IMG/VR virus record: IMGVR_UViG_3300009149_000022
Span: 9,727-73,726 of that record
Origin: a virus
Reading direction: 5' to 3' (one strand)
Length of the DNA: 64,000 nucleotides
The notes below the pieces were generated by a model. That model searched no databases. It was not told where the DNA came from and was given only the letters and a program-made list of their open reading frames with translations. Positions 3,884-64,000 of this stretch are shown here, one piece after another. Positions within the stretch are counted from its first letter, which is position 1, and each line of letters starts with the position of its first letter. The position numbers and the translations under genes were made by a program.

Positions 3884-5104
3884 ATGACAAAAGTAAGTAA
3901 AAAACACAGTTCTGTCGATGACATATTCAAAGAATTAGGAGAAGTTAACCCCTTTGGAACAAGTTCCTTTGGTAATTCAGAAACCTATAAGAATGAAACA
4001 TGGATAGATTCTGGTAATTGGATTTTAAATGCAGCCCTAAGTGGATCAATAAAAAAAGGGTTTCCAAGTACTAAACAAACCAGTTTAGTAGGAGAATCTG
4101 GTAGTGGAAAAACATTCTTAACATTGAACGCTGTAAGAAATGCCCAACAAATGGGTTACACACCAATATATTACGATACAGAAGGTGCTGTTGATCCACA
4201 AGCATGTATAAATTTTGGAATTGATTTAGATAATTTTAGACACGAACCAGTTTCCGAAATCGAAAAACTGAAAACCATGTTTGCTATTTTTATCAAGAGT
4301 TTAACAGATTTAAAAATAAAAGGTAAAGAAATTCCAAAATTTATTTTGATTCTAGATTCTATTGGTATGGTTGCATCATCTAAAGAAATCGAAGATGCGA
4401 GAACGGGTAATAGTGCTGCGGATATGACAAGAGCAAAACAAATACGATCTTTTTTTAGAATAATCACATCTGATTTAAATTCATTGGGAATACCTATGTT
4501 ATTCACAAATCACGTAGGTGTTAATATAGGAGGATATGGTGATCCTGTTGTACAAGGTGGTGGTAGTGGTGTGGTTTATTCACCAAGTATTACATTATTT
4601 TTATCTAAAGCTAAATTGAAAGATGATAAAGGTGATGATAAGAAACAAACTGGTGTTATAGTTACAGCAAAAACCGGTAAAAATAGATTTGCACAACCAA
4701 AAACAATTAAATTCCCCATTTTCTTTGATAGACCGTTTAATAGATATATGGGTGTACAAGATTATTTGACTTGGGAAAATGTGGGTATTGCAAAGGGTAA
4801 TATTTTAACAGAAAAAGAATATAGTAAACTCAAAGGTGCTGAATTAGAAAAAGTTAAATCATTCACACCATCTGGTAGTGAAGAAGTAATGTATTTTATG
4901 CCAAAAGAAACAGCTAGGAATTATGTTATTGAACATTTGGGTATTACGGTTGACGCACGAAACTTATTTACTGATAAAGTAATGTTACCCTTAGAAGACC
5001 GATTCGATAAAGTTATTAGAAAAGATTTTGAGTTTAGTTCCCAAGAATCTGATAGTGAAATAGATGGTTTGATAGATGAATCTGATGAAGAAATCGAAGA
5101 TTAA
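3884..5104 (+). CDS. uvsX: UvsX/RecA-like recombinase
   Basis: GESGSGKT, YDTEGA, ILDSIG, DMTRAK, GGG motif, KNRF. Confidence 0.93.
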   Translation: MTKVSKKHSSVDDIFKELGEVNPFGTSSFGNSETYKNETWIDSGNWILNAALSGSIKKGFPSTKQTSLVGESGSGKTFLTLNAVRNAQQMGYTPIYYDTEGAVDPQACINFGIDLDNFRHEPVSEIEKLKTMFAIFIKSLTDLKIKGKEIPKFILILDSIGMVASSKEIEDARTGNSAADMTRAKQIRSFFRIITSDLNSLGIPMLFTNHVGVNIGGYGDPVVQGGGSGVVYSPSITLFLSKAKLKDDKGDDKKQTGVIVTAKTGKNRFAQPKTIKFPIFFDRPFNRYMGVQDYLTWENVGIAKGNILTEKEYSKLKGAELEKVKSFTPSGSEEVMYFMPKETARNYVIEHLGITVDARNLFTDKVMLPLEDRFDKVIRKDFEFSSQESDSEIDGLIDESDEEIED

Positions 5105-5190
5105 AATTGTTAATACATAAATACAAAACCGAATTATCTATGATTTTTCGGTTTTTTGTGTTCATTAAATATATAAAATATGATAATCAC

Positions 5191-5394
5191 ATGAAAGGTT
5201 TATGCGACATACTAAAAGAATCAAAAGAATCCGATAAATTAGCTAATGGAATAAATAAAGCTATTGTGAAAATTGATGATAATATGAGTTATACTGATTT
5301 TGCACTTGCTGTTGCAAAGATTCTAAAAGATGAATATGGTGAACATAATTTCGAACCATTCACTAAAGTTCTACACAAAGAATTAGGAATGTGA
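5191..5394 (+). CDS. Small hypothetical protein with capsid-targeting-like leader
   Basis: ATG 5191 after TTAAATA; MKGLCDILKES; followed by a terminator. Confidence 0.6.
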   Translation: MKGLCDILKESKESDKLANGINKAIVKIDDNMSYTDFALAVAKILKDEYGEHNFEPFTKVLHKELGM

Positions 5395-5419
5395 TTTCAC
5401 ATTGCTACATAAAATATAT

Positions 5420-5450
5420 AAAAGGACTAAAATTATTTAGTCCTTTTTTT
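5420..5450 (+). terminator. Intrinsic terminator
   Basis: AAAAGGACTAAA-loop-TTTAGTCCTTTTTTT. Confidence 0.8.
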
Positions 5451-5476
5451 GTTGTAATATACAAATAAGATTGTAT

Positions 5477-6775
5477 ATGATAAACACAAGTGAATTTGAA
5501 AAGATTTTTTTACTTTTCGCATTAGAAAATCCGGTATATTTAGAACCCATAGAAAGATCATTTTTTTCTGTTCCTGAAATAGATTTACTTGCAATAATTT
5601 CTAAAAAATATTATAAGAAATTCAAAAAAGCACCATCAAAAGAAAACTTGTGGATGTTAATATCTACTGGTGAATTAGAAGAAAAATGTCCTAAGATTTT
5701 TTTCGATGAAATATTTAAGAAAAACATTAGAGAATATGATATTGAATGGGTTGAACAAACGGCACAATCTTGGATTAAATGGAAACACTTAGATTCTTCA
5801 ATTGTAGATACTGTTGAATATATAAACACCGCAAAAGTTACACCAGAAAATGTTGGTGAAATTGTTGATAGTGTTAAGAATATGATTAATGGTAGAAACA
5901 ATCTAACATTTGATGATGATCTGGGTACAGACTTTTTTGATGCAAAATCCCATAAAAGAAATGCAGAAGATTTACTTAGTTCTAATTACGATTTCATAGA
6001 TAAAAACTTAGGTGGTCATTCTAAAGGTACACTAAATGTGTATATTGCACCACCTAATACTGGTAAGTCATTATTCCTTTGTCAAGATGCTGCTAATTAT
6101 ATTAAATCGGGAAAAAATGTTTTATACATTTCATTAGAAATGCAAGGACAAAAGGTACATAAACGAATAGGTTCTGATATTTTCAACATAAATATAAGTC
6201 AATACGACAAAAAAGCCGAAGATTTAGACTATATGCAACGTAAGATTACTGAATTCAAAGAAATGAATTTAGTAACACCGGGTGCATTAACAGTTAGGAA
6301 TTACGAAACTAGTAATGCAACAGCTGATGATATTGATAATTTTATTGGTAAAATACAAGATATAACTGGTATAATATATGATGTTGTTTTGGTTGACTAT
6401 ATCAACATCATGAAAGATAAAAGAAATCCTAATTCTGAATCTACATATTTGAAAATTAAAAATATATCAGAGGATTTAAGAGCAGTTGCACAAAGAAGAC
6501 ATGTTGTGATGATAAGTGCCACACAAACAAATAAAATGGGAATAGAATCGTCTAATTTAAATTTAAGCCATATTGCAGAGTCAGCTGGTCTTGCTGCAAC
6601 TTGTGATACTATTATGGCTATTATACAAACAGCTGAAATGAATTTAGAAAATTTCTATTGGTTGAAACTCATAAAAGTTAGAGATGGATCAAAGGGTGCT
6701 AAATGTCGTATCAATATAGACTATGATTATATGAGACTTACTGAAACCAATACTGTTATGTTCGATTCGGAATAA
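5477..6775 (+). CDS. gp41: Replicative DnaB-like helicase (gp41)
   Basis: APPNTGKS, YISLEM, LVDYIN, SATQTN, IAESAGL, KVRDG. Confidence 0.93.
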   Translation: MINTSEFEKIFLLFALENPVYLEPIERSFFSVPEIDLLAIISKKYYKKFKKAPSKENLWMLISTGELEEKCPKIFFDEIFKKNIREYDIEWVEQTAQSWIKWKHLDSSIVDTVEYINTAKVTPENVGEIVDSVKNMINGRNNLTFDDDLGTDFFDAKSHKRNAEDLLSSNYDFIDKNLGGHSKGTLNVYIAPPNTGKSLFLCQDAANYIKSGKNVLYISLEMQGQKVHKRIGSDIFNINISQYDKKAEDLDYMQRKITEFKEMNLVTPGALTVRNYETSNATADDIDNFIGKIQDITGIIYDVVLVDYINIMKDKRNPNSESTYLKIKNISEDLRAVAQRRHVVMISATQTNKMGIESSNLNLSHIAESAGLAATCDTIMAIIQTAEMNLENFYWLKLIKVRDGSKGAKCRINIDYDYMRLTETNTVMFDSE

Positions 6776-6860
6776 ATTACTACTCTACTAAAGATAATGT
6801 AGTAATTTATACCAGTTTGACGGCATTGGTAATGTATTAAAGTTTTTGGTTAAATAATAT

Positions 6861-7808
6861 ATGAAGATAACCGAAAATGATAATATACAATGGGAAAGAA
6901 TGGGAATTTACATATTACTAAATGAAAACGGAAAGTGTTATATAGGTAGTACTAACAATATAAAAAATAGATATTTTAGACATAAACACCTGTTGGTGAA
7001 TGGTAAACACGGCAAGTATATACAAAGAGCATATAATAAAAAAACAGCTAAGTTTAATTTTGAAATATTGGAATATGTAGACGATGTTAAAGATTTAAGA
7101 AAAAGAGAGGCACACTATATAAAAGAATACCAATCTATGTACTATCAAAATGGATATAATATTTTTGATGTGGATGATAATGGATATTTTTGCCATTCAG
7201 ATGAAACTAAAAAGAAAATATCAGAAGCAAATAGAGGTAAAATACCATATATAGATATTTTTGGGGCACATGGTGTGACAACTAAAGATGATACAAGATG
7301 GGAAAGTGGCGAAATATATCACAATACTACAAATAAAGTTTCTTGTATAGATAGTAATGGAAATACTAAAGTGGTAACTATGGAAGAATTTGAATCATCA
7401 AAAGATTTGTTTGGTGTCAATAAAGGTAAAAGTACATACAAGGACAAGTATGGAAATACTACAATGACTACCATAGATGACCCTAGAGTATTAAGTGGTG
7501 AGTTGGTTGGTATTACTAAAGGAATACCTTCATTGCATGCCAAGGTAATTACTGTTGATGGTATAACATATCGTTCGTTAGAAGATGCATATACAACACT
7601 AGGAATATCAAAACCAACTTTCCGTAAACTATTAAAGGATGTAAATAATATTATATCTACCGTTCCATTTCAAGTGTCATTGTCAAAATATTTAGACGAA
7701 AAAAATAAAAGACAAGTTATTATAGATGGTATTGTATATAAGAATATGACAGTTGCTGTGAAAGAATTAGGAATAAGTAGGTATAAATTAAAAAAACATG
7801 AAAGCTAG
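6861..7808 (+). CDS. Free-standing GIY-YIG homing endonuclease (Seg-like; NUMOD3 and HTH tail)
   Basis: GIYILL...YIGST, REAHYI, GYN, HSDETKKKISEA, two C-terminal DGIxY HTH-like repeats. Confidence 0.9.
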   Translation: MKITENDNIQWERMGIYILLNENGKCYIGSTNNIKNRYFRHKHLLVNGKHGKYIQRAYNKKTAKFNFEILEYVDDVKDLRKREAHYIKEYQSMYYQNGYNIFDVDDNGYFCHSDETKKKISEANRGKIPYIDIFGAHGVTTKDDTRWESGEIYHNTTNKVSCIDSNGNTKVVTMEEFESSKDLFGVNKGKSTYKDKYGNTTMTTIDDPRVLSGELVGITKGIPSLHAKVITVDGITYRSLEDAYTTLGISKPTFRKLLKDVNNIISTVPFQVSLSKYLDEKNKRQVIIDGIVYKNMTVAVKELGISRYKLKKHES

Positions 7809-12035: not shown

Positions 12036-13415
12036 ATGAGAATTAATGTTATAGAAAAATTCGGACTATATGAAAAATTAAGTGATTTATCTAAGGGTCT
12101 TAACGAACACGAAGAATCTCAAAATATTTGCAACAAGGCTATTCATGATTTGAAAAGTGAGTTCACTGACAATAAATTTAATTTATATCTTGAACAATTG
12201 AAACAATATGATTGGATTACAGAAATAGAAAACTTTATTGAAGATGTTAAAACATTTTTAAATGAAAATAAATATGGTGTGCAACTAGAAAGAGTTATGA
12301 ACAAATTATCTGGTATAAGTGCATATGCACCAATAGTAGAATCAATCAAAGAAATCGTTGCATTAGATGAGTCTGAAATAAAGTCAAAGATATCTTCTTT
12401 GAGTAAATTCAAATTCGAACCTAATATTAAAAAGTTAGTAGAGGGGTATGAACAATTGGAATTCAATGTTCAAAAAACACAAAAAGCTGAAATTACAAGC
12501 GCACCAATAACACCTGTTATGCAATTAGAAGAAGGATTTGTATTTGCATCTAAAAGTGGTAATTATGTCGTATCGAATGACATTACTAAAGTTGAAAAAT
12601 ATGATGGTAAATTAACTAATGAATTTACAAAAGCAAAAGCTGCCTTGAACATATTCAAATATAAAGGAGATAATACTTTTGAAGCTAAATTGAACAAAGC
12701 CACTATCACTTTGACTACTAGTGATGAGGGAAACAAAATGACAGTGAACGAAAGTGAAATTGAAAATAAAACACAATTGACTAAGTTATTGAAAAATGCT
12801 GGTTTGGTAAATTATACCGATACTAACACAAGATCACTAATTGAATTTATGTATGAAAAGGCAAATGAATTTGTAGAAGTTGATTTTGTTAAATCAATAG
12901 AAACCATCAACGAAAAACTAGAAGTGTTTAAGATGTCAAACAACGAAGTTTCTGTTGCAAAATATGATAAGAAAACAAGAGGGTTTGTTTTAGAATCTTT
13001 GGATCTAGAAGACATTGAAGACCTTTCTGAATCTTTGAAAAAAAGTTATGATTTAGATTTCAATAATGTTTTAGAAGGTTTACATATCAATGTTGAATCT
13101 TTAGAATTTAAATCACTAGTAGAAAGTATAGATACATCTAAGGTTATTGATATGACTAAAACAGATGAAATCTATTCTAAAATAGAAGAAGCAAATTCTA
13201 AATATAACGAATTGAATGTTGAAAACAGAAAAAATGTTGAAAACGAATTCATTAAATTACAAGAAAAAGAAAGTATATTAAAAGCTGATGAGGTTTTGTT
13301 CTTAATAGAAACTAAAAAGGCTTTGATAGATAAATTAGACGAAAGTGAAGAATTATCTAAATCAATAGAAATGTTGAATGATGAGTTAGTAACTTTTGTA
13401 ACTGAAAAAGTTTAA
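12036..13415 (+). CDS. Hypothetical head-associated protein with many (L/I/V)xE sites
   Basis: Acidic, helical, late promoter, repeated LNE/VNE/LVE. Confidence 0.55.
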   Translation: MRINVIEKFGLYEKLSDLSKGLNEHEESQNICNKAIHDLKSEFTDNKFNLYLEQLKQYDWITEIENFIEDVKTFLNENKYGVQLERVMNKLSGISAYAPIVESIKEIVALDESEIKSKISSLSKFKFEPNIKKLVEGYEQLEFNVQKTQKAEITSAPITPVMQLEEGFVFASKSGNYVVSNDITKVEKYDGKLTNEFTKAKAALNIFKYKGDNTFEAKLNKATITLTTSDEGNKMTVNESEIENKTQLTKLLKNAGLVNYTDTNTRSLIEFMYEKANEFVEVDFVKSIETINEKLEVFKMSNNEVSVAKYDKKTRGFVLESLDLEDIEDLSESLKKSYDLDFNNVLEGLHINVESLEFKSLVESIDTSKVIDMTKTDEIYSKIEEANSKYNELNVENRKNVENEFIKLQEKESILKADEVLFLIETKKALIDKLDESEELSKSIEMLNDELVTFVTEKV

Positions 13416-13434
13416 CAATTTAAACAATAATAAC

Positions 13435-13464
13435 AAAAGGGAACAATTCAGTTCCCTTTTTTTT
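13435..13464 (+). terminator. Intrinsic terminator
   Basis: AAAAGGGAAC...GTTCCCTTTTTTTT. Confidence 0.8.
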
Positions 13465-13479
13465 AACCCCTTAAAATTC

Positions 13480-14229
13480 ATGGCAAAATCAAGAAATTAC
13501 CTTAATAAAAAAGACCTTTTAGAAGAAATTTACAAATCAAGGGCACAAGATAAATTAACAAAAGAGTGTTTAGATATGTTGATGTTACTTGCACAAAGGA
13601 CAATCAAAAAACTTTACTATAAATGTGAAGATGATAAGCAACACGCATTATCCGAAGCATATTATGACATTTCTAATAATTGGAGAAAATTCAATCCAGA
13701 TTTTGCTCGTTTCCATGGATATGCAAATTTAGAACCGGGGGATGAAATTAGAGTTTATCCAGAAAAGGGTTCCGATAGGACTGCATTTGCTGTTGTTGTT
13801 GAAAATTACCCAATAGAGGATTTAATTACAAAAACAGAAAATGAATTGAAATCAATAGGTATGAAATTAGTTAATACTGTATATGATGAAAAAGAAAAGG
13901 TGTTATTTGTAAATAGAAAACCTACAAAAGAAGAGATTTTGGAAAATGATTTACCAAAGGATTCTATATTAACATATTCTATAGATGCTTCTGAATTTAA
14001 TAGAATTAAATTAGAATATATCATAAAGAAAAACCAAACTGATATTGATATTTTTGATAAAGAAGATATAATCATAAAAGACCCAAACCCATTTTCATTT
14101 TTTACATCAACTTCTATAAATGGTTTTGCCAAAGGGTGGAAAAAACTTTATCCCAACAAATCAAAGGGTATTTTACTCAGCATTGATTCAGGATTTAGTA
14201 CAGATGGTGATGGTATGCATTCAATATAA
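13480..14229 (+). CDS. gp55: Late-transcription sigma factor (gp55-like) with internal insertion
   Basis: NYLNKKDLLEEI N-terminus; FNP and NPFSFFT motifs of the gp55 family. Confidence 0.75.
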   Translation: MAKSRNYLNKKDLLEEIYKSRAQDKLTKECLDMLMLLAQRTIKKLYYKCEDDKQHALSEAYYDISNNWRKFNPDFARFHGYANLEPGDEIRVYPEKGSDRTAFAVVVENYPIEDLITKTENELKSIGMKLVNTVYDEKEKVLFVNRKPTKEEILENDLPKDSILTYSIDASEFNRIKLEYIIKKNQTDIDIFDKEDIIIKDPNPFSFFTSTSINGFAKGWKKLYPNKSKGILLSIDSGFSTDGDGMHSI

Positions 14230-14245
14230 TTTTCTAATACATAGT

Positions 14246-14274
14246 AACCCTATCAAATTTTGATAGGGTTTTTT
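14246..14274 (+). terminator. Intrinsic terminator
   Basis: AACCCTATCAAA/TTTGATAGGGTT followed by a T-tract. Confidence 0.75.
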
Positions 14275-14290
14275 GCTATTAAATACCTAT

Positions 14291-14770
14291 ATGAGCATAA
14301 AGAACTTAAAACCAACAAAAAATGCTAGAACTAAACAGGGGTATTTTTCTATTTCTGAATCTGTTAAATATGTAGGTGCTGTAAAAAAAGTAATTTATAG
14401 ATCATCATGGGAATATAGATTTTGTACTTTTTGTGAAAGAAGTCCAACAGTAAAACAATGGGCATCTGAATCTGTTTGTATAAAATATCATTGTCCTATA
14501 GAAAACCGAATTAAAAACTACTATCCGGATTTTTTAGTTAAATTAACCAACGGTCAAACTTGGTTAGTAGAAGTAAAACCAGAACAAGAATACAAAAACC
14601 CACCACATAAACCAAAAAGAAAAACTAAAAAGTCTTTGTCAAATTATGAATATTTGATGAAAAATTATTTAGTAAATAATTCAAAGTTCAAATCGGCAAT
14701 TGCATTTTGTAATTCCAAAGGGTGGACTTTTTTCGTTGCTGATGAAAAATGGTTTAGACAAAAAAGATGA
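14291..14770 (+). CDS. gp4: Head completion nuclease (gp4-like, TnsA-type)
   Basis: YRSSWE, WASE, YYPDF, EVKP. Confidence 0.9.
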   Translation: MSIKNLKPTKNARTKQGYFSISESVKYVGAVKKVIYRSSWEYRFCTFCERSPTVKQWASESVCIKYHCPIENRIKNYYPDFLVKLTNGQTWLVEVKPEQEYKNPPHKPKRKTKKSLSNYEYLMKNYLVNNSKFKSAIAFCNSKGWTFFVADEKWFRQKR

Positions 14771-15375
14771 TTCTCAAAGAAATTCAAGAAATCAAAAGAA
14801 AAAAGGGATTGCAGATAGCAGAAGATGAAGCATATTCTTGGTTTAAAAAGGCAAAAAAGAATCCTATGGACCCAACTGTGGTTTTTTGTGAAAATCAACT
14901 AATGCAAGTTGGTAAACTAAATCAATTTAGTTATAACCCAAAATTAAAAGATACTTTAGATTACTATGATAAGAGACCACTAGTTTTAAGTTTAGGTGTT
15001 ATTCACAGAAAAAAAAGAAGATATGAACTTGGATTAAATTTAAATTTTATCCCCGCACCATATAAATGGTTCATATTGGACAAAATACAATCTACATACA
15101 GTGGTTTCTTTTTAAGACAAAGAGATGGTAGATCACCCAATAATGCATTAAAACAACCACAAATAATGTATAGGTATCAAGTAGTAAAAGCACTATTGGC
15201 TCAACATGGATTTGAATTTGCAATTAGAACATATATACCAAGTCGAAAATCTAGAGTTTATTGTATAAACTATAACAATTGGGTTGATGCTGCATTTTTA
15301 TCTATTGAAAAGTTCGAAGGTATAACATATAACGAAATGATACAGGAATTTAGAAAATCTAGACTTTCTAGGTAA
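14767..15375 (+). CDS. gp2: DNA end protector (gp2-like)
   Basis: F.Y.PK.K..L.YYD..PLV and GLNLNF motifs; next to gp4. Confidence 0.8.
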   Translation: MILKEIQEIKRKKGLQIAEDEAYSWFKKAKKNPMDPTVVFCENQLMQVGKLNQFSYNPKLKDTLDYYDKRPLVLSLGVIHRKKRRYELGLNLNFIPAPYKWFILDKIQSTYSGFFLRQRDGRSPNNALKQPQIMYRYQVVKALLAQHGFEFAIRTYIPSRKSRVYCINYNNWVDAAFLSIEKFEGITYNEMIQEFRKSRLSR

Positions 15376-15469
15376 TTAAATATATTAAACTAATGGGGTC
15401 GTTTACATACCATCCACTAAAGATGAATGGGTTTACACTACCTTTTATAAATCAATAAAGAAAACAATT

Positions 15470-17086
15470 ATGGCATCTATATTTAATAGAACGGGAGTTA
15501 ATAGTAACAATTCCGATGTTAATAACAAATCATTTAGAAACACAGCACTTAGAAAATTATCAGGTAGGGGATATGATTTCAAAGATTCAGTTATTACAAA
15601 TTCCGAAGCCATAGGTAGTATCGAAAACAAAATAGGATGGGAAGAAAACAATAATTTATTGAGGTATGGATATGATTCTAATAATATGGATCAGTTATAT
15701 GATTTTTCGTATTCTGATGTATATTCTAAAAAGAATATACCATTCTTTGACCAAAACTACCCATCAAAAATAAAACAATTAAGGACATATGCACTACAAG
15801 ATGAAATAGAAATGATCCTTGACACACTTACGGACGAAATAGTGGTTTATAATACCGATAGATATTTTGCTAATATAGAATGGGAAAGTGACCCGAACAT
15901 GAAAGAAGAGTTTTCTGCTATTATCAAAGATAGTTTAAATGAAAACTTTAAGAAGATATATAATCTATTTGGTTTTAAGAACGAAAATTCAGCATGGGAT
16001 TTTGTCAAAAAATTTTTAGTTGATGGGTATTTATCTTACGAAATTATATGGGACAGCAAAAAAATAAATATAATAGGATTTAAAGAATTAGATCCAATAT
16101 CACTAACTCCAAAAATATATGAAGACGGTACTAGAGGATGGGTACAATATCCATTAGATCAAGTCAAAAAAAGAGAGTTATCGGATGCACAAGTTATATT
16201 TCTAGCTTTTTCCGCAATTAATGGAGAAAATAGAGTTTCTTATACCGAAAGACTAATACGATCTTTTAACATATTAAGAATAATGGAACAAACTAGAATT
16301 ATTTGGGCTGTTGTTAATAGTTCATATAAAACAAAATTTGTTATACCCGTTGGTGGTAAATCAAAAACTATGGCAAAACAAACCCTTGGTTCTTTGATGC
16401 AGTCATACAGAGAAAATGTCAATTTCGATAACGAATCGGGAGAGTTAAAGATAAATGGTAAATCTATGATGCCATTTTCAAAAGAATATTGGATACCTGA
16501 AGGTGACCAAGGAACACCAACAATAGAAAATATCGGAAACGACGGTCCAGATATGTCAGATACTGAATCTTTAAAGTATTTTGTTGATAAATTAATACAA
16601 GTATCCAAGATTCCAAGAAATAGATTTGTTAAAGAAGAAAGTCCAACTTGGGAATCATCTCCGGAAGGCTATACAAGAGAAGAAATATATTTTGGTCGAT
16701 TTATAGATAGATTAAGGGGTAAAATACAAGAAGTTGTATTGAAACCAACCATTTTACAAACAAAGAGAGACATTAAAGAATTGGCGGAAGATCCAATGTT
16801 TGATTCAAAGGTAAATTTATCTTGGGTCAAATATGATGTATTTGAAAAATTAAAAGAAACTGAATTACTACAAAGAGAATTAGATTTAATTAGTTCGGCT
16901 AAAGATTCTCTAATTGATTATGATGCAGATGGTAGTGAAATTAGATTCTTTAGTTCTGAGTTTTTGGTTAGGAAATATCTAACATCACTAACAGAAAGTG
17001 ATTTAAAACTCAATAGAAAATTGAAAGAACAAGAAGACAAAAATATAGAAAATTCATTAGACACTGATGACGAAACTGACTTTTAG
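15470..17086 (+). CDS. gp20: Portal protein (gp20)
   Basis: FLVDG, LDP, N.LRIME..RII, EYWIP, KIP..RF, TREEIYF.RFI.RLR. Confidence 0.92.
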   Translation: MASIFNRTGVNSNNSDVNNKSFRNTALRKLSGRGYDFKDSVITNSEAIGSIENKIGWEENNNLLRYGYDSNNMDQLYDFSYSDVYSKKNIPFFDQNYPSKIKQLRTYALQDEIEMILDTLTDEIVVYNTDRYFANIEWESDPNMKEEFSAIIKDSLNENFKKIYNLFGFKNENSAWDFVKKFLVDGYLSYEIIWDSKKINIIGFKELDPISLTPKIYEDGTRGWVQYPLDQVKKRELSDAQVIFLAFSAINGENRVSYTERLIRSFNILRIMEQTRIIWAVVNSSYKTKFVIPVGGKSKTMAKQTLGSLMQSYRENVNFDNESGELKINGKSMMPFSKEYWIPEGDQGTPTIENIGNDGPDMSDTESLKYFVDKLIQVSKIPRNRFVKEESPTWESSPEGYTREEIYFGRFIDRLRGKIQEVVLKPTILQTKRDIKELAEDPMFDSKVNLSWVKYDVFEKLKETELLQRELDLISSAKDSLIDYDADGSEIRFFSSEFLVRKYLTSLTESDLKLNRKLKEQEDKNIENSLDTDDETDF

Positions 17087-63327: not shown

Positions 63328-63558
63328 ATGGAAAAAATTATTAGAAATTATGGAGATTCCGACATTGTGGGGTATTTGGTTTTAGAACTATTGGTTAAAG
63401 ATCAAAGTGTAAAAAGAATGGTTACATTACCACTAGGTCCTGAAAGTTCAAACATTACTTTCAAAGATTTGGGTGATTTTGCATTTGACCACTATTATAA
63501 AAATTATGATAGTGATAGTGTATATGGATTTAGTTATAGAATTATTGAAAAAGATTAA
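63328..63558 (+). CDS. Hypothetical protein
   Basis: Start revised to ATG 63328. Confidence 0.55.
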   Translation: MEKIIRNYGDSDIVGYLVLELLVKDQSVKRMVTLPLGPESSNITFKDLGDFAFDHYYKNYDSDSVYGFSYRIIEKD

Positions 63559-63640
63559 GTACTTAAACCAATGATTATGATGAGAATTAGATTCAAAGCA
63601 CCGGATGTTAAAAGAAGTTACTTGAAGTAATTTTTATTGC

Positions 63641-63695
63641 ATATAACGGTTAGTATATGAGCCGTTTTTTCTATGGCTTATATACATTGTTAGCA
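63641..63695 (+). repeat. attC-like imperfect palindrome
   Basis: ATATAAC...GTATATGAGCC-loop-GGCTTATATAC...GTTAGCA. Confidence 0.65.
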
Positions 63696-63734
63696 TTAGT
63701 ACGGATTATAATATTAACGAATAAAATAAATAAA

Positions 63735-63866
63735 ATGAAAAATCCAATAAGAAAAATATTACCACCATCAATTAAAATAACTTCAAATTATAAGTGGCAC
63801 AAAAGATTATATGTATTAATTAAGAACCCTATAACTTACCTATTTAAAGGTTATGTGGAGTATTAA
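63735..63866 (+). CDS. 43-aa ORF within a cassette-like unit
   Basis: Bounded by GTTAGCATTA (63689) and its exact reverse complement TAATGCTAAC (63864), which contains the stop codon. Confidence 0.55.
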   Translation: MKNPIRKILPPSIKITSNYKWHKRLYVLIKNPITYLFKGYVEY

Positions 63867-64000
63867 TGCTAACGGTTAGTATAAGATTAGTGCGCTAACC
63901 ACACAAATTATTACTTCAAAAAATACTAATGTATAGTAACATATTAACTTTTTATTCGTATAATTACATAAACAAACTTTAAAACAATGAAAAAAGAAAA

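Follow-up and report, generated by a model that had tools for sequence, protein, structure and literature searches.

A putative gene cassette with attC-like hairpin sites in a viral contig, and the hairpin family that it shares with Flavobacteriia-type bacteria and their phages

The 3' end of the viral contig examined here, which lies within the 64,000-nt stretch of DNA that we analysed (the window), probably carries an integron-like gene cassette, and we put the probability of this reading at roughly 0.65. The locus contains two sites, called site 1 and site 2 below, that belong to a family of attC-like hairpins of Flavobacteriia phages, and the enzyme acting on them would be Xer-like and supplied in trans. 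In the mechanism that we propose, the sites of this family, which are common to Flavobacteriia-type bacteria and their phages, would work like the attC sites of integrons. The unit at 63647-63872, consisting of a hairpin and a 43-aa gene, would be a gene cassette, and such units would be cut and joined at the AAC of the left arm by an Xer-like tyrosine recombinase. This recombinase would come from the host or from a co-infecting phage, because the contig encodes none, and phage cassettes would mostly carry DNA-modification genes that probably act against restriction. An earlier note on this DNA had suggested that the phage acquires accessory genes by attC-type cassette recombination. We found an attC-like family, arrays, and junctions at AAC in relatives, in keeping with that suggestion; the system is not a canonical integron, and recombination at the window locus itself, the identity of the enzyme, and the present mobility of the locus are what we infer from sequence comparison.

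The viral contig is 73,726 bp long with 29% G+C, and its end coincides with the end of the window. From 59230 to the end, every gene is encoded by the + strand. Upstream of site 1 there is a 76-aa ORF (stop at 63558) with no relative among the viral contigs, followed by a 19-codon reading frame. The features of the locus, placed in window coordinates, are as follows.

63634-63647, + strand: outer part of the left arm of site 1, with the conserved AAC at its end (63645-63647), invariant in 24 of 24 aligned copies
63641-63695, + strand: site 1, an intact type-1 attC-like hairpin of 55 nt from R box to R box, identified by its fold energies and a covariance model
63647-63872, + strand: putative 226-nt cassette unit made up of the hairpin, the leader and the ORF, with AA/C on both sides, placed from the junction positions in relatives
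63693-63734, + strand: conserved 3' flank (63693-63708), then an A-rich leader to the start codon
63735-63866, + strand: 43-aa ORF encoding a conserved small basic protein with homologues in five clusters, putative cassette cargo
63860-63903, + strand: intact left arm of site 2, a type-2 (longer) hairpin, with AAC at 63871-63873 and a 25-nt stretch that is identical in the left arm of L005
63904-63966, + strand: apical part and right arm of site 2, both decayed, with an insertion and a diverged right arm in the alignment to eight intact copies
63987-64000, + strand: start of the next gene (ATG at 63987), cut by the contig end

Positions 1-200 of the contig, which are outside the window, form the interior of a collagen-like Gly-X-Y repeat, and the other end holds 14 nt of a new ORF. 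This repeat is probably where the assembly broke, and the contig start may hold the continuation of the last ORF.

The attC-like hairpin described in the earlier note is present and intact at site 1, framed by AAC and GTT. Its stem is formed by 63653-63663 and 63675-63685 (11 bp including one G.T pair) around an 11-nt loop at 63664-63674, and the GTT at 63689-63691 closes an outer stem of AACG/TGTT. As RNA, the + strand folds at -22.8 kcal/mol (z = -4.0; 0 of 200 shuffles were as good) and the minus strand at -12.4 kcal/mol; the corresponding DNA folds are -7.7 for the + strand and -5.3 for its complement. A covariance model made from relatives recovered site 1 at E = 5e-17, so this hairpin is not a chance palindrome. 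Compared with the R-box consensus RYYYAAC/GTTRRRY, the window boxes have six of seven matching positions on the left (63641-63647) and five of seven on the right (63689-63695), and some relatives (L013, L023, L026) fit GTTRRRY perfectly. The 3' flank at 63693-63708 is also found in L010, L014, L112, L118 and L120. On reading the sequence between the hairpin and the ATG we found no sigma-A-type Bacteroidota (-33/-7) promoter motif, and sigma-70-like hits were below shuffle level (24 in the sequence, 30.9 in shuffled sequence). There is no U tract after the main stem.

An alternative 7-bp stem with a T run at 63645-63666 shares sequence with the left half of the main hairpin and would compete with it. 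This stem looks like an attenuator or terminator, but lacks conservation among relatives. Two other identities were considered for the locus and rejected. The 14-mer shared by the two sites looks like a tRNA D-loop, and ARAGORN found 0 genes in the window; an Rfam scan (E <= 10) returned nothing at the locus and one irrelevant weak hit elsewhere.

Site 2 begins at the end of the 43-aa ORF, the first bases of its left arm (63860-63903) being the last codons and the stop of this gene. Positions 63870-63903 are letter-for-letter the left arm of a second, longer hairpin family that we found in eight viral contigs. The 19-mer at 63881-63899 occurs exactly in those eight contigs, where it forms a 19-bp stem. 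This type-2 hairpin has the AAC/GTT frame and the first and last bases of type 1, with an apical part of about 33-36 nt. In the window the counterpart of the right arm (about 63924-63966) has diverged and its pairing is lost, in line with the degenerate right arm noticed earlier. The DNA fold of site 2 is -5.5 kcal/mol and lacks the long stem, compared with -11 to -12 for intact copies. Site 2 is a decayed copy of a type-2 site.

The sequence shared by the two sites, which had also been pointed out in the earlier note, is a direct repeat of 17 nt (16 of 17 identical) at 63644-63660 and 63870-63886, 226 nt apart, and the exact 14-mer within it occurs just twice in the 73,726-bp contig. The stop codon of the 43-aa ORF does adjoin a complementary sequence: the 10-mer at 63689-63698 has its exact reverse complement at 63864-63873, each of the two is unique in the contig, and on extension the pair gives 26-nt arms that are 77% complementary. 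These sequences had been taken for a complementary core and inverse core bounding a cassette at 63689-63873. They belong instead to two different hairpins, the first being the right arm of site 1 and the second the left arm of site 2, and their complementarity simply reflects the palindromic frame common to both. Since the junctions in relatives fall at the AA/C of the left arm, the crossover at site 1 would lie between 63646 and 63647, and the cassette unit is most likely 63647-63872.

A repeat search and the covariance model detected no site copies in the contig beyond these two, and no tyrosine recombinase (PF00589) match was found in the whole contig, for which CheckV gives a completeness of 27%. 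The absence of an integrase from the window thus extends to the entire contig. A CALIN is a cluster of two or more attC sites with no integrase nearby; here sites 1 and 2 are 226 nt apart with no integrase in the contig, and the right arm is gone in site 2. Elsewhere, the hairpin family is present in 38 viral and 50 bacterial contigs and includes arrays linked to recombinases. That the contig has two sites only, one of them decayed, we count against the cassette reading, and with one of its two sites decayed this cassette copy may be stranded.

In the early region of Cellulophaga phage phi13:2 (L001 1-3900, record 12552-16450), nearly all spacers between the small genes hold hairpin-less forms of the motif. 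The short form consists of a stop codon, TAACG, a few bases, GTATG, and a flank of the ACGGA/ATTAA type. Because these hairpin-less motifs fill the early spacers of phi13:2, hairpin loss is seemingly common, and the pattern suggests that the whole early region of this phage is a decayed cassette array.

We compared the last 24 kb of the window with 50,697 phage records by megablast. The sole match was a stretch of 65 nt, 91% identical to phi13:2, that corresponds exactly to the hairpin; in phi13:2 it lies between gp035 and a DNA methylase gene. The collections searched contained no close relative of the locus, and the phage records have just a methylase gene and the hairpin in common with the contig. 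A 27-nt core is found exactly in 26 IMG/VR contigs, and a slightly degenerate pattern raises this to 38 viral contigs. Weaker copies are carried by Cellulophaga phages phi12:1, phi12:3 and phi17:1 and by Nonlabens phages, and the covariance model (R1) picked up further copies in phi13:2, phi12:1, Nonlabens P12024S and Polaribacter P12002L. When 24 distinct copies were aligned, AAC and GTT proved invariant and the inner stem paired in all of them, its positions being invariant or covarying. The outer stem is paired in about half of the copies and covariation support is modest; the half-paired outer stem fits exchange at the AAC/GTT triplets and is no proof by itself.

In at least 14 distinct phage loci the gene downstream of the hairpin encodes a DNA-modification enzyme, and these enzymes belong to six Pfam families: N6_N4_Mtase (L001, L010, L013, L018, L024, L118), MethyltransfD12 (L005, L012), C5 DNA_methylase (L004), MT-A70 (L023, L026), Mom (L007) and PAPS_reduct (L015). 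P12002L has five model copies (E 1e-6 to 0.05) directly upstream of gp35, gp36, gp38, gp53 and gp54, which are its five modification genes. In Cellulophaga phage phi18:3 (L030 3341-3523), a site upstream of a C5 methylase gene has the same arms with a different apical insert of ~100 nt, and in the sister phage phi13:2 the equivalent slot holds another methylase family. We considered the tyrosine recombinase of phi13:2 and phi18:3, encoded 1 kb downstream of the hairpin, as the enzyme of the system and rejected it because it is unrelated to the array-linked enzyme described below.

The phage family carries sharp mosaic junctions at the AAC, as a site-specific crossover predicts, with identity at chance level to the left of this triplet; they were seen in the following three independent pairs of loci that have a cargo gene in common.

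L013 and L024: 34% identity over the 50 nt left of AAC, 100% over the 60 nt to its right, then 97% over the next 100 nt
L112 and L113: 36% identity over the 50 nt left of AAC, 100% over the 360 nt to its right
L110 and L114: 42% identity over the 50 nt left of AAC, 98% over the 60 nt to its right, then 95% over the next 100 nt

Rare variants of the inner arm narrow the crossover to AAC plus one or two bases; L024, for example, is a chimera with the left flank of L017 and the inner arm of L013. Homology of this length is too short, and homologous recombination is therefore unsupported at these junctions. Integron integrases are known to cut at the AAC position (PMC5027507). Site-specific recombination probably made the AAC junctions. 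Other chimeras, such as L017 compared with L003, break within the conserved core, showing that homologous exchange occurs too.

In all phage loci the hairpin lies between two genes and has the same orientation as both. Its left arm touches or overlaps the stop codon of the upstream gene, and in most loci the next start codon is 41-48 nt past the core. One strand of the hairpin, that with the G.T pairs, is the more stable in 75 of 75 copies folded as RNA and in 74 of 75 folded as DNA, and the mean RNA fold of the family is -22.6 kcal/mol compared with -13.7 for the complement. On this stable strand the arm on the AAC side is the longer, with 9-10 nt between triplet and core as against 6 nt. In the window and in all phage loci the genes are encoded on the stable strand. 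In bacteria, as in classical integrons, this strand is antisense to the genes, and at 33 of 51 bacterial sites both neighbouring genes are on the strand opposite to the phage arrangement.

The co-orientation with transcription at a fixed 41-48 nt counts against the cassette reading to the extent that it fits an RNA-level role too. The hairpin could be mainly a terminator, a processing site or an mRNA stabiliser, with shuffling by homologous recombination as in PeSL cassettes, and we consider this unlikely as the main explanation. It would account for the orientation of all phage copies (about 40 loci plus P12002L), for the fact that the stable G.U strand is the mRNA strand with the fold energies given above, and for the fixed distance and the conserved 3' flank. 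The small alternative stem with its T run and the chimeras that break within the conserved core also agree with it, and PeSLs show that such motifs can drive shuffling (PMC2839356, PMC4122927). The polarity in bacteria, however, means that a sense-strand role cannot cover the whole family. An RNA role is also at odds with the missing U tract after the main hairpin and with arrays that begin beside a recombinase, and the clustering of breakpoints at 3-5-nt AAC(G) microhomology is left unexplained by homologous recombination. The two roles are not exclusive, attC sites being thought to be weak terminators (PMC9892861), and a sense-strand RNA role may coexist with the recombination role.

The 43-aa ORF has homologues in five clusters with 71-84% identity, and 22 of its 43 columns are invariant, nearly all of them in the C-terminal half. 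Since there are five homologous clusters and the C-terminal half is nearly invariant, we take it to be a real gene; no Pfam family was found for it. Its stop codon is directly 5' of site 2. Counting the window, the homologues occur in four different gene contexts, for example between genes for a primase-helicase and a SNF2-type helicase in L102, and in all four the homology around the ORF ends at the AAC after the stop. In L104, as in the window, the homologue is preceded by an identical right arm of the hairpin, and in L100-L103 a different hairpin framed by AAC and GTT lies upstream. By comparison of these contexts, the 43-aa ORF appears as a gene that is mobile between different surroundings.

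Gain or loss of the 226-nt unit as such was not seen, the collections having no close relative and the public contigs breaking inside the hairpin. The sequencing runs searched are represented by Logan contigs that break in the hairpin, and one run only, probably the source sample, holds the locus. No contig of any run covered 63748-63849. Joints in the runs (for example 63705 to 63859) have short sides with an unlettered gap between them and come from the copies of other organisms.

Dozens of contigs with the sites at 63646-63713 and 63850-63917 were seen in four metagenome runs (subsurface, soil, seawater and sponge). In run X1 the summed depth was about 1600 (1601) over site 1 and 11 on the flanks. 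The contigs frequently end in the hairpin, indicating an assembly-breaking repeat.

Such a high-copy palindromic repeat, present in many metagenomes (as the depth in run X1 and the soil, seawater and sponge copies attest) and always intergenic, might instead be a miniature non-autonomous transposable element of the IS200/IS605 or REP/RAYT kind that is unlinked to its neighbour gene. We find this very improbable. The hairpin travels with the downstream gene, its apical part varies in a fixed frame as in attC, and in the arrays, which hold a single gene in each spacer, the starting point is a tyrosine recombinase gene and not one for an HUH transposase.

A degenerate form of the hairpin pattern was found in 50 genome contigs, nearly all from Bacteroidota, with hosts among the Flavobacteriaceae, Saprospiraceae, Cyclobacteriaceae and Prolixibacteraceae. 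An 8-kb bacterial locus holds several model copies in the same orientation, 86-167 nt long and in one frame. For attC sites a variable terminal structure and a total length of about 57-141 nt are expected, and we take the family, with its type-2 form and the apical insert of phi18:3, to agree with this. The bacterial arrays have one gene per spacer, and the cargo consists of unrelated enzymes, among them a beta-lactamase fold, an S41 peptidase, an arginine deiminase, Fic, an esterase and DUF6090. The phage methylases gave no tblastn match in the bacterial loci fetched.

Lutimonas saemankumensis (L088 967-2364; L095 1-19901) encodes a 465-aa tyrosine recombinase, followed by one ORF and then by a hairpin array. 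Over 17 kb this array contains at least eight hairpins, each flanked by ORFs of one orientation, and the first is 1.4 kb from the recombinase gene. The same layout of a recombinase followed by an array is found in five genomes, namely Lutimonas, Muriicola marianensis, Gaetbulibacter and the MAGs L052 and L049. The recombinase of M. marianensis has 54% identity and is 2.5 kb from a hairpin; in Gaetbulibacter hairpins are at 0.7, 12 and 39 kb and the recombinase is at 48.6 kb. Our literature search found no account of a Lutimonas-type layout with a recombinase beside an array.

The Lutimonas recombinase reaches the cut-off of NF040815 ('tyrosine recombinase/integron integrase'). On the integron-integrase model TIGR02249 it scores 211 bits against a cut-off of 265, and model positions 182-240, the region of the IntI-specific insert, are unmatched. 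The importance of this insert has been described previously (PMC8138268). The enzyme is also extended by 170 aa at its N-terminus, and its gene points in the direction of the cassettes.

These data bear on the most conventional explanation, namely that a classical IntI integrase moves a canonical integron cassette by recombining attC with attI; we give this very little weight. It would explain the imperfect palindrome with its AAC/GTT frame and variable apical part. Integrons have been reported in Bacteroidota (PMC8618304), and HattCI called a member of the family in Polaribacter phage P12002L, P12002L_attC1, an attC (PMC9892861). This site was predicted in a phage CALIN by HattCI only (Qi et al. 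2023, PMC9892861), the Infernal attC model leaving it uncalled; we matched it to our model hit at 29986-30074 of L099, making it a member of the window hairpin family. Of the six sites studied it is the one without verified IntI1 x attI1 recombinants (PMC9892861). Because a recombinase gene is absent from the contig, the enzymes linked to the arrays score below the cut-off and have no IntI insert, the gene polarity is the mirror image of classical cassettes, and P12002L_attC1 failed with IntI1, the system is not a canonical integron, and that reading is already largely refuted. In the same direction, the only complete integron that IntegronFinder 2.0 reported from Bacteroidetes was that of Salinibacter (PMC9024848), and arrays such as those above are therefore probably invisible to standard tools.

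The integron-like cassette reading is better placed by comparison with the systems that it resembles. Like sedentary chromosomal integrons, the family has imperfect palindromes that fold within an AAC/GTT frame, a variable apex and a strand stabilised by G.T pairs. It also has same-orientation arrays with one gene per spacer beside a tyrosine recombinase, and junctions at AAC. The bottom strands of attC sites show the identical G.T strand bias (PMC5027507). Unlike in integrons, the recombinase has no IntI insert, carries the N-terminal extension (in Lutimonas) and is co-directional with the cassettes. The unpaired extra bases are on the AAC arm of the stable strand, whereas in canonical bottom strands they are on the opposite arm (PMC5027507). 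Phage cargo genes are on the stable strand, again a mirror image, and the start of the loop and the stem sequence are conserved across the hairpin family.

The CALINs reported in virulent phages include a member of this same family, P12002L_attC1: P12002L is a phage of a marine Flavobacteriaceae host, its sites flank DNA methyltransferase genes, and it has no phage integrase. The CALIN study described two sites in one phage, whereas we found at least five copies in P12002L and further copies in dozens of other phages and in 50 bacterial contigs. The family as described here has, in addition, AAC junctions and a recombinase partner other than IntI. The cargo also differs, being the 43-aa ORF in the window and a methylase in the CALIN of P12002L.

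PeSL cassettes of T4-type phages (PMC2839356, PMC4122927) are similar in that short conserved intergenic stem-loops flank small accessory ORFs and serve as exchange points between otherwise unrelated sequence in plastic regions of large phages. PeSLs carry a sigma-70 promoter and a terminator and are shuffled by homologous recombination in one phage lineage (Arbiol et al. 2010; Comeau et al. 2014). By contrast, no promoter was found with the hairpin described here, which is common to unrelated phage families and bacterial chromosomes, and its junctions at a 3-nt triplet and its dedicated recombinase family linked to arrays set it further apart.

A hairpin can serve an Xer-like enzyme in a different setting. 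In phages of the CTX-phi type, an Xer-family recombinase acts on a folded hairpin of single-stranded phage DNA and integrates the whole phage at dif, whereas here single-gene units are arranged in arrays.

Taken more widely, the data favour, by a little better than even odds, a gene-capture system of Flavobacteriia and their phages that standard integron surveys would miss. Its small Xer-like enzyme without the IntI insert would act on a family of AAC/GTT-framed hairpins with conserved sequence, serving arrays of classical polarity in bacteria and a separate phage pool of mirror polarity exchanged across unrelated phage families. The phage cassettes would be rich in anti-restriction genes and rely on an enzyme from the host or a helper, and the window would represent a minimal, partly decayed array in a large phage. 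If this is true, the phages of a major marine bacterial group have a dedicated, site-specific means of swapping accessory genes, above all restriction-defeating methylases, and the swapping crosses phage families that have no other DNA in common. Gene capture of the integron type would then also reach a recombinase family and a phylum for which integron finders yield next to nothing. With the sites, the candidate enzymes (bacterial ones and one from a phage) and phage-host pairs that can be cultivated (Cellulophaga phi13:2, Polaribacter P12002L) identified, the proposal is open to direct testing.

The phage-borne candidate is in viral contig L125 (33 kb), where a type-2 hairpin, a small ORF, an N6_N4 methylase gene and a gene for a 268-aa recombinase follow one another on one strand (4973-7276). 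The recombinase gene is 1.4 kb from the hairpin and adjoins the methylase gene. Its product is 36-41% identical to several bacterial Xer/IntI-like enzymes, including the array-linked ones of L052 and L079, and 33% identical to the Lutimonas enzyme. This contig is a candidate for a phage-borne version of the complete system.

Homologous cassettes were also seen in different bacterial families, in L064 and L081 (Algoriphagus and Psychroflexus) and in L051 and L068 (a Bacteroidetes MAG and Lutimonas). In both pairs the flanks beyond the hairpin are different, suggesting that cassettes have moved between distant hosts.
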